Origin: Chloropicon primus
Lineage: Eukaryota
Assembly (NCBI GenBank): GCA_023205875.1
Contig: CP060766.1
Location: forward strand, 558,001 to 605,067
Reading direction: 5' to 3'
DNA: 47,067 bases
In this document: positions 22,164 through 28,259 of the stretch, one piece after another
How the letters are laid out: each line of letters opens with the position of its first letter
Position numbering within the stretch: the first letter of the stretch is position 1
The notes under the pieces: model-generated
Seen by the model: the letters and a program-made list of their open reading frames with translations, nothing else
What the model was told of the DNA's origin: nothing
Databases searched by the model: none
Program-made: the position numbers and the translations under genes

Positions 22164-23903
22164 CAGGCCCCGCTTGTCCTTCCTTCCAACAACTTGCCTC
22201 GAAAGCCGGGGAGCAAAACCCTTCTCGCTCCTCGCTCCTCGGTCCGTGCGCGGCCAACCCCCTCGAGTGAGGTATCGTTCGAAAGCCCGCGAGAAGACGC
22301 TTCCCGATGTGTCCACGCCCTTGCGAGCTCAAGCCTCCCGCACTCGCGCTCGCGCTCGCCGTCGTCCGCGGTCCCCTCTGGTCCGCCGCGTAACGCACGA
22401 GGGTATGAAGGCGTGTAAAAACCGGAACACTCAAAAAACGAAAGCGAGGAGCGAGAAGCTTTGGAGCGATGGCGATGATGGTCTCGACGGTCAACCGAAG
22501 AGCCAAGAGCCATGGATGCTTTCTTCCTCTTCCTCTTGTTCGTTGTTCCCTCCCTCCGTTCCCTCCCTTCGAGCATGATGCAGCGAGGTTGTGTCGGTTG
22601 TGTAGTATGGGAAACACTATAGAAGGGGTTTAGGTCGAGTGTGAAGAGAAGAGAAGACATCGACATCGACCATGGTTCTCGTCTTATCTGTCTTCCTGCG
22701 ACTGCTACTGGGGAGGACCGAGGACGGACTTTGTGCAACTCCCGTGCTACGACGGTAGGACAACTCACTCCCTCCTTCCCCAAAAGAGAGGAGAGAGAGA
22801 GAGAGAGGAAGGAAAGGAAAGGAAAGGGAAAGAAGAGAGAACAGGTCCTTCTCTTCCTCTTCCTCTTCCTCTTCGTCTTCGTCTTCGTCTTCGTCTTGGT
22901 TCTTCACCACCTCGTTGGTAAAGGCGGCCCTCTCTGACCTAAAAGGAAAAAGACAGTATTCGTTCCAAGACCAAAGGTTCGTGGAGGAACATTTCTGCAA
23001 GACTTCAAATTCAAACTCTACTCTCAACAGTAAACGCTCATTCATTACCACATTTCAATTACGGTAAAGTTGGATTTCACTTATTTTGTGTTCGTTCTCT
23101 CGTAGAATCATGTTCGCGACGTCTTTACGAACCACGCAATTAGAATATTCAAGTGGAAGAGAGGCCAAGTGGACGGAAACCATCGTCGCTGGCGACGCGA
23201 GGAGGGAGCAGCTTTGTGTGTGTCTCTCGAGCAAGAGACTCTTGGCCCACTCAAGTCGTTATCTTGGACCGTAGCGTTCCACCCAAAGTCGACTCGACTA
23301 GCCAAACCGACTGCTTGCCCTTTGTGCTGCACATAAACGAGCGCCCAACCCCGCGAGGTGCTTGGCTTTGTCCTGCAAGAGCAAGAGCAAGAGCAGAGGT
23401 GCCTTTTGTGCAGACCATTGGTTGGGAAGGGACCGAGGCAAGGAGGTTTGCTTGGGTTCAACTCGTTTGACTCTTCTCTTGGGTTGGGTTGGTACGACGG
23501 TGGGCTGTGGAGCGTGACCCTGGCCTCACTCTTTCGAGGTGAAGCGGAGGAAAGGAGGAGAGCTTGACGCGCTCGAGGGGCTGCTGGAGGAAGAAGACGA
23601 AGACCTTCTGAGCGGGCGGACCAAAGTGAAACAAGTGAGAGAGACGACAGAGAGACAGAGAGGCACGAGAGAGAGAGAAAGAGAGAGAGAGAAAGAGAGA
23701 GAGAGGGGCACGACAGAGAGACAGGAGCAAGGTGCTTGTTGTTGTTGGAGAATGAAGGTGCAGAGCCAAGTGCTTTGTTAAGGACAGACCAAGAACAGAC
23801 ACACACGAAAACGAAACAGAAGTCTCTTTGCTTTGGGGTGCAGCTTCACGATAATTTCTATGACTAGTGAGAAGAATTTGAAGCGTACTGCTGCAACAGT
23901 TTG

Positions 23904-26597
23904 ATGACGAAAGAGTCTTCAGGAGATAGTGCCGCTCCTAAAACAGCCATAGTTGGGAACTTTACCGATAGTAACAACATGAAGAACGAAGTAAAATCCG
24001 TAAGCCCTCTGACGTCGATAGACGAGATAGAGTCGGAGAATGGGACGCACCATGAGGTCGTCAAAAACAAGAAGCGAAGGCGGAGCAGCTTCAAGAAGAA
24101 GGGTGCCATCACAAAGAAGCTGTTGATCAAGTTCTTGGACTCGGCAGGCTTTCAGGCGTATATGTTCGTCTGCCTGGTGCTTGCACTCTTCGCCGTGGAC
24201 GTCATTGCCCTCCACTCGTACGGTAACGACGTCACAGAGGCCATGAACATCATCCTCACGCTTGTGTTTGCGAGTTTCCTTGCCGAGATGGTCTTGAACT
24301 TTTTCATACGGGAGGATTACTCCAAGCTGGAGACGGTGATGAACTTTATAGCCACGTTCTCCATCCTTTTGGACATCACGTGGATCACAGAGCTTTGGGA
24401 GAAGAGCGATGGAGGAGGAGGAAGCTACGAGAGGGCCTCGCGTGCGGCCAGGGTCGGAGCGAGGGCCGGTAGGATTGGTAGGATTGTTAGGGTGGTCAGG
24501 CTTGTTCGTGTGATTAAGATGTTCGCCCTCTTCTTCCGGTGCTTCCGCAAGGATGAGGAGGAGGACTCCATGGCGCCAACCAACTTGGGGCAGAAGCTGG
24601 CCGAGTCCATCTCCCGTTTGGTGGCCCTTCTCATCATGATTACCATCTGGGTTGCTCCTATGTTGACGTTCGAGGAGTTCGACGAGTCCCTCTCTGCGTG
24701 GATCACTGTCTTTGATTCTCACGCGCAGAACAACGCCACCACGTTCCAGCTGGAACCTGTCGTCACGGACTACTACGACTTCATCATGGATGGCGGCCTG
24801 CTGAGACCGGTGGAGCTGAACATTCACGGCGACTACTGGGACTGGACGGAGATCTCTGGCGGGTACACGCCAAGAAAGAAGGACAAGATCACGCTCCAGG
24901 ACAACAGCGGTTTGATCGTGCTCAAGCTCGACTCCTCGAAGAAGAACCAGGAGGACGCCATGCTCAACATTCTCTTGGTGGTGGTGGTGGTGGTGGAGCT
25001 GATCTGTTTTATCGCGCTTCTGAACCAGACGACCTCTCTGCTGGTGGTGCGGCCGCTGGAGAGGATTTTTACCATCATCCGAATCAACGCTTCGCAGATT
25101 GTGGGAGCTTTGGACATCGAAGACTCGGACGAGGAGTCTGAGGACGAGAAGGAAGTGGACGAGATCAACACAATCGAGGCTGCTGTCCAGAAGATGACAA
25201 GGATCGTGAAGCACGTCAGTGGAGGTGGTGCCCAAGGTTCTCAGATCGTGCAAAACTACATTGATGACGCCAACATTGATGAGAAGACAAAGGCCTGGCT
25301 GGTGAACCAGTACGACGGTTCCGAGACCGTCGCCGAGACCCCTGCGAAGAAGAAGAAGAAGGAGAGGAAATTCAAGAGGAGCATCATTGCCTACGACAAC
25401 GTGGACCTTGATTTCTTGAACTCCTGGAACTTCGACGTGTTCTTGCTCAAGGAGGAGGAGATGTTCTCTTACGTGAGAGCCATGTTCATGGAGCTTGGCT
25501 TGTATGAGGCTGGCATGGTCACGGACGAGATCCTGAGCAACTTCTTGAAGGAAGTGAGGAAGAACTACCACGACAACCCTTACCATAACTTCCACCACGT
25601 CATCGACGTTACCCACGGAGTGTACCGCATCTTGAGGCTCACGGAGGACCGCTTGGATCTCACGGAGTACGAGAGAATGTCTCTGATGGTTGCTGCTATT
25701 TGCCACGACATGGATCACCCTGGTGTGAACAACGCTTACTTGGTGCACACCCTGGACCCCCTTGCCATCAAGTACAACGATTCTGGTGTCTTGGAGAACA
25801 CCCACGTCGCTTGCTTGTACAGCATGGTCACCACAAAGCCAAACAGCAACATCTTCGTGAACATCAAGGACGACAAGGTGTGGAGGGATATGAGGAAGAA
25901 CATCATTGGTTGCATTCTGCACACCGATATGGCTCACCATTTCAAGATGGTTTCCCAGATGGATGTGTTCTTCGAGTTGCACGCCAACGTGATTGAGAAG
26001 AAGGACAACCCTTTCACCACTCCTGATGACAGGCAGTTTTTGATGAACATGGTTCTGCACTCTGCAGACATCTCGAACGCGGTGAAGCCTTTCGGAATCT
26101 ACACCAAGTGGGCGAACTGCGTGCTGGAGGAGTTCTTCTCTCAGGGAGACAAGGAGGCGGCCAAGGGGCTACCAAAGTCTCCGATGATGGACAGGGAAAC
26201 CACCTCAAGGGCCATGTCCCAGGTCAACTTCATAGAGTTCATTGTTGGCCCATTGTACCTGAACCTTGTGAAAATTCTGCCTGAGCTCTCTGAGCTGGCC
26301 ATCACCTTGTTGAACAACAGGAAAACGTGGGGAGACATGTACATCGAGGAAGTTGACGGCAAGTCCATGAGCTCCATGGACTTTAACGCAAGAGAGGAGG
26401 AGAAGGCCAAGTGCACCAACAGGTACTTGAAATTCAAGGAGAAGTTTGAGCCAGTTATGGAAAAGATGGAGGAGCTGGGTTTCGCCAGTGAACAACTGCT
26501 GAAGAGGGCTGGTATCCAAAAGAAGGAGAGGCCAAACCCAAGGGCCTCCGTCATTGGCAACCTTGCCCGCAGAGCTTCGATTTCCATGGGCAAATAA
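23904..26597 (+). CDS. Class I cyclic-nucleotide phosphodiesterase fused to an N-terminal six-TM ion-transport/voltage-sensor-like domain
   Basis: PDEase_I motifs YHNFHH..DVTH, AAICHDMDHPGVNN, LENTH, TDMAHH, HSADISN, EEFFSQGD and SQVNFIEFIV. N-terminal TM helices include the S4-like RASRAARVGARAGRIGRIVRVVRLVR. Confidence 0.93.
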   Translation: MTKESSGDSAAPKTAIVGNFTDSNNMKNEVKSVSPLTSIDEIESENGTHHEVVKNKKRRRSSFKKKGAITKKLLIKFLDSAGFQAYMFVCLVLALFAVDVIALHSYGNDVTEAMNIILTLVFASFLAEMVLNFFIREDYSKLETVMNFIATFSILLDITWITELWEKSDGGGGSYERASRAARVGARAGRIGRIVRVVRLVRVIKMFALFFRCFRKDEEEDSMAPTNLGQKLAESISRLVALLIMITIWVAPMLTFEEFDESLSAWITVFDSHAQNNATTFQLEPVVTDYYDFIMDGGLLRPVELNIHGDYWDWTEISGGYTPRKKDKITLQDNSGLIVLKLDSSKKNQEDAMLNILLVVVVVVELICFIALLNQTTSLLVVRPLERIFTIIRINASQIVGALDIEDSDEESEDEKEVDEINTIEAAVQKMTRIVKHVSGGGAQGSQIVQNYIDDANIDEKTKAWLVNQYDGSETVAETPAKKKKKERKFKRSIIAYDNVDLDFLNSWNFDVFLLKEEEMFSYVRAMFMELGLYEAGMVTDEILSNFLKEVRKNYHDNPYHNFHHVIDVTHGVYRILRLTEDRLDLTEYERMSLMVAAICHDMDHPGVNNAYLVHTLDPLAIKYNDSGVLENTHVACLYSMVTTKPNSNIFVNIKDDKVWRDMRKNIIGCILHTDMAHHFKMVSQMDVFFELHANVIEKKDNPFTTPDDRQFLMNMVLHSADISNAVKPFGIYTKWANCVLEEFFSQGDKEAAKGLPKSPMMDRETTSRAMSQVNFIEFIVGPLYLNLVKILPELSELAITLLNNRKTWGDMYIEEVDGKSMSSMDFNAREEEKAKCTNRYLKFKEKFEPVMEKMEELGFASEQLLKRAGIQKKERPNPRASVIGNLARRASISMGK

Positions 26598-26811
26598 TAA
26601 TAATGTTTTAGAGCTTTTTGACGTAGCTGGTCAATCATGTTGTAATTTACCACACACACGCTATATTCGCATACCCCACAACGCAACGCGACGCGGCGGA
26701 GAGAGAGAGACAGAGGGAGAGAGAGAGAGAGTTCGCAAGGACGGTCTTTTTGGTTTGTAATACAAATCGTTACACTAGTTTACTTGGAGAGTTTACTACC
26801 ACGAAAACGGT

Positions 26812-28259
26812 TCACGCAATGGTCAGGTTCAGCCTAAGAGTTCGAGGCAACTTCTTGTCATTGATCGCGAGGGTCGCTTTGTTCGTCATGATCAAGTCCT
26901 TCACTTTCCTTTGCAAGTTCGGCCTCGTTGCTTCCTCCAGAGGACCGTGCATGTAGAGGTTCATGCTGCCACAGCTTATGCTTGGCGCGGAGATGTTCCC
27001 CTTCACCGATGCGTGGGCGGAAACCACATCGATGAGCTCCGCCAACGTTTTCGATTCCGATATCGTCAAAGAAATCCCAGAGCTGCAAACAGGGCATTCC
27101 GCGTCCTTCTCGTACTTGACTGTGTGCGTGTAGATTCCCTCGGCTCCCATGTACATCATGTAATTGTCCATCCCTGCGCAGCACATCGTCACCGTCTTGA
27201 GAACTTCGGTGGCGCAAGCCGCCGCCACAATTGCGTTGGTCGAGGCGATGGCCGGAATGATGTTCTTCACCACCCCCTGGACCAACGAGAACGTCACGCC
27301 CCCGATCCCGAATTGCTCCGCCCTCTTCACCGCGTTCTTGTGGCACCACTGCAGATGCTCGACATTGTCCACGTCGAACTCCACGATCTCGTTCTCCTTG
27401 GGCCACTGGATGAGGTGAGCATACTCTATGCAGTGCACGGGCGTTCTCGGCGTCTCCGCCAGAGTGCACAGTGGGAACTTGACCTGGGGAGGGAAGAGCC
27501 ACATGGTGCACGCAAAGCACGGCGTGATGCCGGGAAGGATAACCCTTGCGTGGCCCTTGAACCCCTCCGTGCCCCCGTCAACGAGCGGCTTGATCGTCGA
27601 CAGGTCCAGCTGCCCGTCGTCGTCGTACTCGAGAAAGCCGCAGACCGTCTCGTTGATCCAGCTCCTGGCCTCCACGGAGTCCAGCCCGAGGACGATGATG
27701 TGGAAGCCCTTGTAGAACTCTGGCGATTTGTCCTCGATCCTGCCGAAATGCGGGACGACCTTGACCCCCTCGATCCTTTCCTGGATCCTCTCGGCCGCCA
27801 CGACCGCCTTTGGCTTCCCGACGTCCTTCATCCGAAACAGGAACTGCCTGTTGAGGTTGCTCACGTCGATAGTGTCCATATCAATCACCTCAATGTTCCC
27901 GAACGCCAACAGGGCCAAGTCCTTGAGCAGCTCGCAGCCCAGGCCACCCGCACCAATCACAAGAACCCTGCAGAGGCGCGAGCCGAGGAAGGAACACGCA
28001 AACACAAACACAAACACAAACACACACACACACACACACACACACCAGTTCACTCAGTACGGAGAAGGGGGAGAGAAAGAGATTGTGTGTGTGTGTGCAA
28101 AACCGCTGTCGCCTTGCGCTCTTACCTGCAGTCCTCCCTCAAGAAGGGCAGGATCGCCTCCGAGGGCTCGAACCCTGGACCCACGAGCATCCCATCCCGT
28201 CGAAACAACCTGCCCAACACATCCCACCTCTCTTTCTCGTAAGAATACGAAGGATCCAT
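26812..28259 (-). CDS. UBA3: NEDD8/RUB-activating enzyme E1 catalytic subunit (ECR1), 2 exons (28259-28126, 27967-26812)
   Basis: VLVIGAGGLGCELLKDL, DMDTIDVSNLNRQFLFR and active-site FPLCTLAETPRTPVHCIEYA. The phase-2 intron AG|GTAAG...CTGCAG|G contains (GT)n repeats. Confidence 0.95.

Follow-up and report, generated by a model that had tools for sequence, protein, structure and literature searches.

A single gene of Chloropicon primus is predicted to encode a membrane-anchored cyclic-nucleotide phosphodiesterase (PDE) with a putative voltage sensor, and we put at roughly one-half the probability that its product is a pore-less, voltage-regulated enzyme, a reading that draws on sequence and structural models. 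The gene lies within a 47,067-nucleotide stretch of contig CP060766.1, here called the window. We propose, at slightly less than even odds, that such pore-less voltage-sensing PDEs are widespread in eukaryotes and form a second class of voltage-controlled enzyme, in which a eukaryotic-style voltage-sensor domain (VSD) is combined with a bacterial-receptor-style transmitter and a cyclase or PDE output. To our knowledge, the voltage-sensing phosphatases (VSPs) are the only well-established voltage-controlled enzyme family. The protein is a variant of the ACalpha-type cyclase system that is real, conserved, and widespread. The features of the gene, and the gene just downstream, are as follows.

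23904..26597, + strand: whole gene, a single open reading frame (ORF) of 897 amino acids (P0001); first ATG in the open frame, start backed by relatives
24144..24215, + strand: S1 helix, residues 81-104, with conserved D99 (AlphaFold model, hydropathy, alignment)
24225..24308, + strand: S2 helix, residues 108-135, with the F125 (charge-transfer Phe) and E128 (counter-charge) positions (aligned to FxxE of Hv1 S2)
24324..24407, + strand: S3, residues 141-168, with N147 at the family Asp site and conserved D157 (model, alignment)
24420..24530, + strand: long S4 helix, residues 173-209, with ten Arg/Lys within 177-205 (sequence, model, alignment)
24576..24662, + strand: linker helix entering membrane helix 5, residues 225-253 (hydropathy, model)
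24669..24935, + strand: loop domain between helices 5 and 6, residues 256-344, two helices and four strands (both models, alignment)
24936..25106, + strand: membrane helix 6 running into the first coiled-coil-type helix, residues 345-401, with invariant P384 (model, alignment)
25149..25217, + strand: second coiled-coil-type helix, residues 416-438, with conserved E420 and K430, low model confidence, HAMP-like (model, alignment)
25404..26339, + strand: class I cyclic-nucleotide PDE domain, residues ~501-812, with H561, H565, H601, D602, D722, Q773, and F776 (Pfam, structure, alignment)
26812-28053, - strand: ThiF and E2_bind protein (UBA3-like NEDD8-activating subunit), convergent with the PDE gene (Pfam)

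Reading frame and PDE domain

The plus-strand frame is free of stop codons from 23871 to 26597, and its first ATG lies at 23904. The database copy of the 897-residue protein begins at M26, but the start at 23904 was preferred because three of five close relatives (P0003, P0006, and P0007) open with MTK or MTN at the same site. The uninterrupted ORF of the original prediction is therefore upheld, and every peptide quoted from it is present in the translation. A single-sequence search returned 27 matches, 18 of which carry a PDE (one being the query itself); the rest are mostly cyclases, five named Paramecium. As the membrane and PDE parts occur together in those 18 matches, a chance fusion or misassembly was ruled out. 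Named transcriptome ORFs of homologs hold both parts in one frame, so that in relatives a single transcript contains them. Contigs from two presumed-RNA runs give no real cover of the PDE gene and are neutral as evidence; one covers only the neighboring gene, matching 26738-27200 at the ThiF/E2_bind locus with zero differences.

An antisense ORF (23919-26168, - strand, 749 codons without a stop) was dropped as a gene because it mirrors the coding strand; similar antisense frames lie over several other genes of the window and are probably due to codon bias. Pfam matches were found in 8 of the 20 ORFs scanned, and the neighbors include DXS, a ubiquitin hydrolase, a proteasome subunit, and a Myb protein. 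Together with the long unbroken ORFs and the prasinophytes among the nearest named homologs, this gene content suggests a compact green-algal genome. Nothing suggests a functional linkage between these genes and the PDE gene.

The C-terminal half contains the complete PDE catalytic domain that had been predicted. Pfam assigned PDEase_I to residues 560-799 (E 5.6e-76), the modeled domain superimposes on PDE9A at a TM score of 0.90, and the metal-binding His and Asp residues, the catalytic His, the invariant Gln, and the Phe clamp are all present. Moreover, the core catalytic six are intact in 81 of the 83 family members with a full PDE domain. The top-scoring PDE matches were PDE9 and PDE1B. 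N725 and Y733 resemble the cAMP-specific pocket of PDE4; position 733 varies across the family, and thus a preference for cAMP drawn from these two residues is no firm call. We conclude that the class I PDE looks intact by sequence and model and is predicted to hydrolyze cyclic nucleotides.

Distribution of the module and its cyclase-bearing sisters

A profile built from the membrane module alone, biased toward PDEs by its composition (16 rows, 12 PDE-type and 4 cyclase-type), matched 5785, 3415, and 1188 representatives at E values of 1e-3, 1e-10, and 1e-30, respectively. Among the best 150 of these matches, our own profiles detected a PDE after the module in 80 and a cyclase in 43; another 25 stop shortly past the module, and the remaining 2 carry different tails. 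The tails of P0084 and P0196, candidates for other effectors, were rejected as such because by eye they look like truncated PDE-type proteins. Algal homologs had been suspected and do exist: named PDE-type members come from Cymbomonas, Pterosperma, Pyramimonas, Amphidinium, Oxyrrhis (a cluster member), and Chattonella, so that the PDE-type family spans prasinophytes, dinoflagellates, and one raphidophyte. A 279-member ESM Atlas cluster carries PDEase_I in 100% and PF26726 in 90% of its proteins, with Perkinsozoa commonest among the five that have a record. PF26726, a newer Pfam family with the ill-fitting name Helical_RasGEFs, marks most PDE-type and cyclase-type members.

Some family members add ankyrin repeats, and some also add an N-terminal cyclase. 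Four proteins (P0109, P0148, P0158, and P0166) combine an N-terminal cyclase, ankyrin repeats, the module, and a PDE, and thus hold synthesis and breakdown in one chain. Four others (P0035, P0043, P0099, and P0174) have a diatom-type order of PDE, module, and cyclase, in which the PDE lies ahead of the sensor, with a GAF domain in front in P0035, P0043, and P0099. P0028, whose source label is 'Opistho-1_new', has the module and, by eye, a cyclase-type C terminus and would extend the cyclase family toward opisthokonts.

The tree and conservation analyses used 142 of 171 proteins, namely those whose module was nearly complete and followed by an effector; the other 29 were dropped. A FastTree phylogeny of the module alone separated 94 PDE-type from 48 cyclase-type proteins on one branch with SH-like support of 1.0, and the clean split between PDE-bearing and cyclase-bearing modules therefore indicates an old family. 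Distances in the module tree and in the PDE tree were correlated with a Mantel r of 0.85 among 83 full PDEs, the highest of 999 shuffles reaching 0.14. The data, with the tree unrooted, fit one old effector swap followed by joint inheritance of sensor and enzyme.

The ion-channel-type (ACalpha) class III adenylyl cyclases of ciliates and apicomplexans were reportedly described by Weber et al. in 2004. Consistent with the original claim that ciliate cyclases share the membrane module, the whole of it is homologous to that of ciliate, oomycete, and diatom cyclases. Homology extends over S1-S4, helix 5, helix 6, and the post-membrane helices, the same F/E/D/R/P/E/K positions are conserved, and identity to a Paramecium cyclase is 34% over 179 amino acids and 24% over 266. 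The ACalpha proteins differ in that their module forms a separate clade, their effector is a class III cyclase rather than a PDE, and a GFG motif that is missing here lies behind their membrane module. The Paramecium cyclase is reported to respond to hyperpolarization (PMC12414865); for the ACalpha module of Plasmodium, activity as a channel is described as 'so far not confirmed' (PMC5746546).

Anatomy of the membrane module

All six hydrophobic segments originally listed are present as peptides, but neither S3 nor S4 exceeds a hydropathy of 1.5 (S4 peaks at 1.46), so that both were called from the structural model and homology. The full-length AlphaFold model (29 sequences, mean pLDDT 74) and a second one restricted to residues 72-445 (16 sequences, pLDDT 72) contain the same elements; confidence falls below 50 at residues 198-226 and 395-445, which are the coupling elements. 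The expectation that Pfam would return Ion_trans and PDEase_I was strongly supported for the latter; Ion_trans was matched at residues 86-207 (E 3.9e-4), yet with a score under the curated cutoff. Since only profile positions 7-109 of 241 are covered, the match represents the S1-S4 half alone. In six relatives the Ion_trans match also stops by profile position 109-118, and in two others it extends to 166 and 188.

Foldseek with the 72-445 module gave no match at E <= 0.001; the best was HCN1 (E 0.096), and the top rows were mostly channels of the voltage-gated superfamily. When 630 Foldseek chains were realigned with VIA, the sensor of Ci-VSP (4g7v) ranked first, superimposing on residues 72-206 with a Z score of 11.7 and an rmsd of 3.2 A over 124 of 136 residues. 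Dozens of Nav, Cav, and Kv VSDs followed at Z 10-11, although helical bundles can reach a Z of about 11 through a common arrangement. The N terminus had been expected to model as a VSD, and we conclude that S1-S4 is predicted to adopt a voltage-sensor-type four-helix fold. VSD folds occur also in proteins that do not sense voltage, such as CNG and TRP channels.

The ladder of S4 arginines at every third residue in the original prediction was confirmed, with one i+4 step among the i+3 steps that separate R177, R180, R183, R187, R190, R193, R196, R199, R202, and K205. The proton channel Hv1 was the top PDB sequence match of the module profile (E 0.0067), and R177, R180, and R183 pair with the three arginines of its S4. 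All 94 PDE-type members have basic residues at 7-10 of the ten sites, and the ladder is kept in both clades. Moreover, S4 is the second-best conserved region among the PDE-type proteins (mean identity 0.55, with 9 columns at 80% or more), next to helix 5 (0.56). The R202 site is Pro in 50 of 94 PDE-type members (dinoflagellate-type), which would shorten S4, and R or K in all 48 cyclase-type members. The long S4 with its internal break is reminiscent of the hyperpolarization-sensing HCN channels. Weighing against voltage sensing, the first half of S4 is polar and rich in Ala and Gly, and some of its arginines may sit outside the field.

Opposing charges were likewise found, with exceptions. F125 and E128 match FxxE of Hv1, in agreement with the S2 Phe/Glu pair that had been proposed, but the S3 Asp cited with it (D157) is the outer one; the site aligned with the inner S3 Asp of Hv1 is Asn147 here and Asp in 90 of 94 PDE-type relatives. 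A basic residue that the VSD S2 motif of one report (PMC4878010) calls for is replaced by N132, and the family has no consistent basic residue at that position. At the S1 site of D99, D or E is found in 92 of the 94 PDE-type proteins and in all 48 of the cyclase type. Conservation among the 94 PDE-type proteins is 91 for F125, 94 for E/D128, 94 for D/E157, 94 for R190, 94 for P384, and 90 for E420.

Hydrophobic segments 5 and 6 are present as predicted but flank an alpha/beta domain of ~90 residues instead of a pore loop; we infer that this loop domain (256-344) lies outside the cytosol. The linker that follows helix 6 had been called HAMP-like. Its two helices have a heptad pattern and the conserved P384 and E420, but of 16 members just one matched the Pfam HAMP family (PF00672), with an E value of 0.059, and HAMP was absent among the 25 families listed for 64 members. 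The spacing from Pro to Glu ranges from 27 to 69 residues in the family and is 36 here, indicating a long and variable connector. A PDB single-sequence search with helix 6 and the helical pair returned nothing meaningful. We therefore use 'HAMP-like' as a weakly supported description of the helical pair and not as a statement of membership. A homodimer model of residues 65-475 scored 0.45, against 0.41 for the control.

When residues 225-445 were compared with the ESM Atlas, spirochete Ion_trans clusters alone were returned, at 0.80-0.85, and are a lead. Spirochete Ion_trans proteins of ~380 amino acids resemble module residues 70-445 by features, at 0.90, and are possibly a bacterial stand-alone form. 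Plasmid matches were sought for the bacterial loci, and none were found.

Mechanism, alternative readings, and implications

A change in membrane potential would move the long S4 past F125 and E128, and the S4 linker would then shift helices 5 and 6. Helix 6 feeds the HAMP-like pair, which, in a probable dimer, could repack and alter access to the PDE domains or their pairing, such that cAMP, subject to the uncertain substrate preference, would fall or rise. Each coupling step, like the dimer itself, is a conjecture. In the sister family a class III cyclase is under the control of this same transmitter, so that cells could couple voltage to either synthesis or breakdown.

Several other readings were weighed against a voltage-regulated PDE. 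The protein may be a receptor-type PDE, a plausible though unlikely case, in which the loop domain binds a ligand, an ion, or a partner protein and passes the signal on via helix 6 and the HAMP-like helices while the VSD only tunes the output or senses pH, lipid, or stretch. Two membrane helices, an external alpha/beta domain, and heptad helices with a conserved Pro and Glu are the layout of bacterial sensors, and one residue of the loop, R324, is shared by 78 of the 94 PDE-type proteins and by 36 of the 48 with a cyclase. Set against this, the loop is the least conserved region (mean identity 0.30 in the 94 PDE-type members) and highly variable in length, no Pfam sensor family for it was among the families listed, and the S4 ladder is preserved across both clades. 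Rather improbable, in our estimate, is a constitutive tethered PDE whose module serves in targeting, for example to a flagellar or organelle membrane, or in oligomerization, with catalysis unregulated. The deviations of N147 and N132 from classical VSD counter-charges are consistent with such a tether, as is the existence of many membrane-bound protist PDEs with no known regulatory domain (PMC7720076, PMC5746546), but an anchor would need neither the basic S4 residues nor the acids of S1-S3 that are kept in all 94 PDE-type proteins sampled.

We regard as very improbable a 'chanzyme' that conducts K+ or H+ and has its PDE controlled by the flux, a scheme put forward for the Paramecium cyclase. 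The purified cyclase was reported to be K+-channel-like (PMC12414865, PMC5746546), and with Hv1 as the best PDB sequence match, conduction through the VSD itself is conceivable. However, the filter motif is missing, as originally noted: neither GYG, GFG, TVG, nor TIG occurs in residues 1-460, and loops with any G[YF]G or T[VI]G number just 5 among the 94 PDE-type proteins and 2 among the 48 of the cyclase type. In place of the pore helix and TxGYG that six-transmembrane K+ channels have between S5 and S6, the alpha/beta loop domain is found, and the Ion_trans match is confined to S1-S4. Of the 48 cyclases, 47 carry G[FYL]G in the 20 residues that follow K430, whereas none of 93 PDEs does (one further PDE did not align); the motif thus tracks the cyclase, not the membrane module. 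It sits after the second helix and is, we take it, what Weber et al. 2004 reportedly called the cytoplasmic 'pore loop'. Finally, channels superimpose in VIA at ~3 A over ~120 residues and at 6-19 A when the alignment is extended, and therefore, in the monomer model, the region beyond S4 fails to overlay a pore. The module looks like a sensor joined to a receptor-type transmitter rather than a channel.

The predicted voltage-regulated PDE resembles known systems in part. Like Ci-VSP and TPTE, the former its best structural match over S1-S4, it bears a pore-less VSD on an enzyme; unlike them, in which S4 is joined directly to a PTEN-like phosphatase, it interposes two further membrane helices, a loop domain, and a helical pair between the VSD and the catalytic domain, and its substrate is soluble. 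Rh-PDE of Salpingoeca rosetta likewise joins a membrane sensor and linker to a class I PDE (the PDE here matches 5vyd and 7d7p), but it senses light by means of a rhodopsin. Closest by annotation alone are TgPDE4 and TgPDE16 of Toxoplasma, annotated in 2020 and 2022 with an ion-transport domain and a PDE, that is, a Pfam ion-transport portion and PDEase_I in one chain; these reports suggest coupling to ion transport and call the pairing 'apparently exclusive' (PMC7720076; PMC8809380). They differ in that the excerpts give annotation with no voltage-sensor reading and TgPDE4 has many catalytic substitutions. In the literature searched, where subscription papers were sparsely covered, no study of a voltage-sensing or voltage-regulated PDE was found, in line with the prediction that no enzyme of this type has been characterized. 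Novelty is nevertheless lower than supposed, because TgPDE4 and TgPDE16 were already annotated and the architecture extends far beyond one gene. We conclude that the domain pairing was annotated earlier but, in the available text of the papers found, was not read as a voltage sensor.

If the proposed reading is true, membrane potential would be linked directly to second-messenger removal in plankton, and the enzyme would offer a tool for electrical clamping of cAMP. The role of the membrane module in the Paramecium and Plasmodium cyclases has been a question since 1992, and channel activity was still unconfirmed in a 2017 review; a single 2.7-kb ORF with a routine enzymatic readout thus provides a direct way into that question. 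The 'ion-channel cyclases' of ciliates and Plasmodium would then be sensors and not channels, and algae and protists would set cAMP in both directions from membrane potential.
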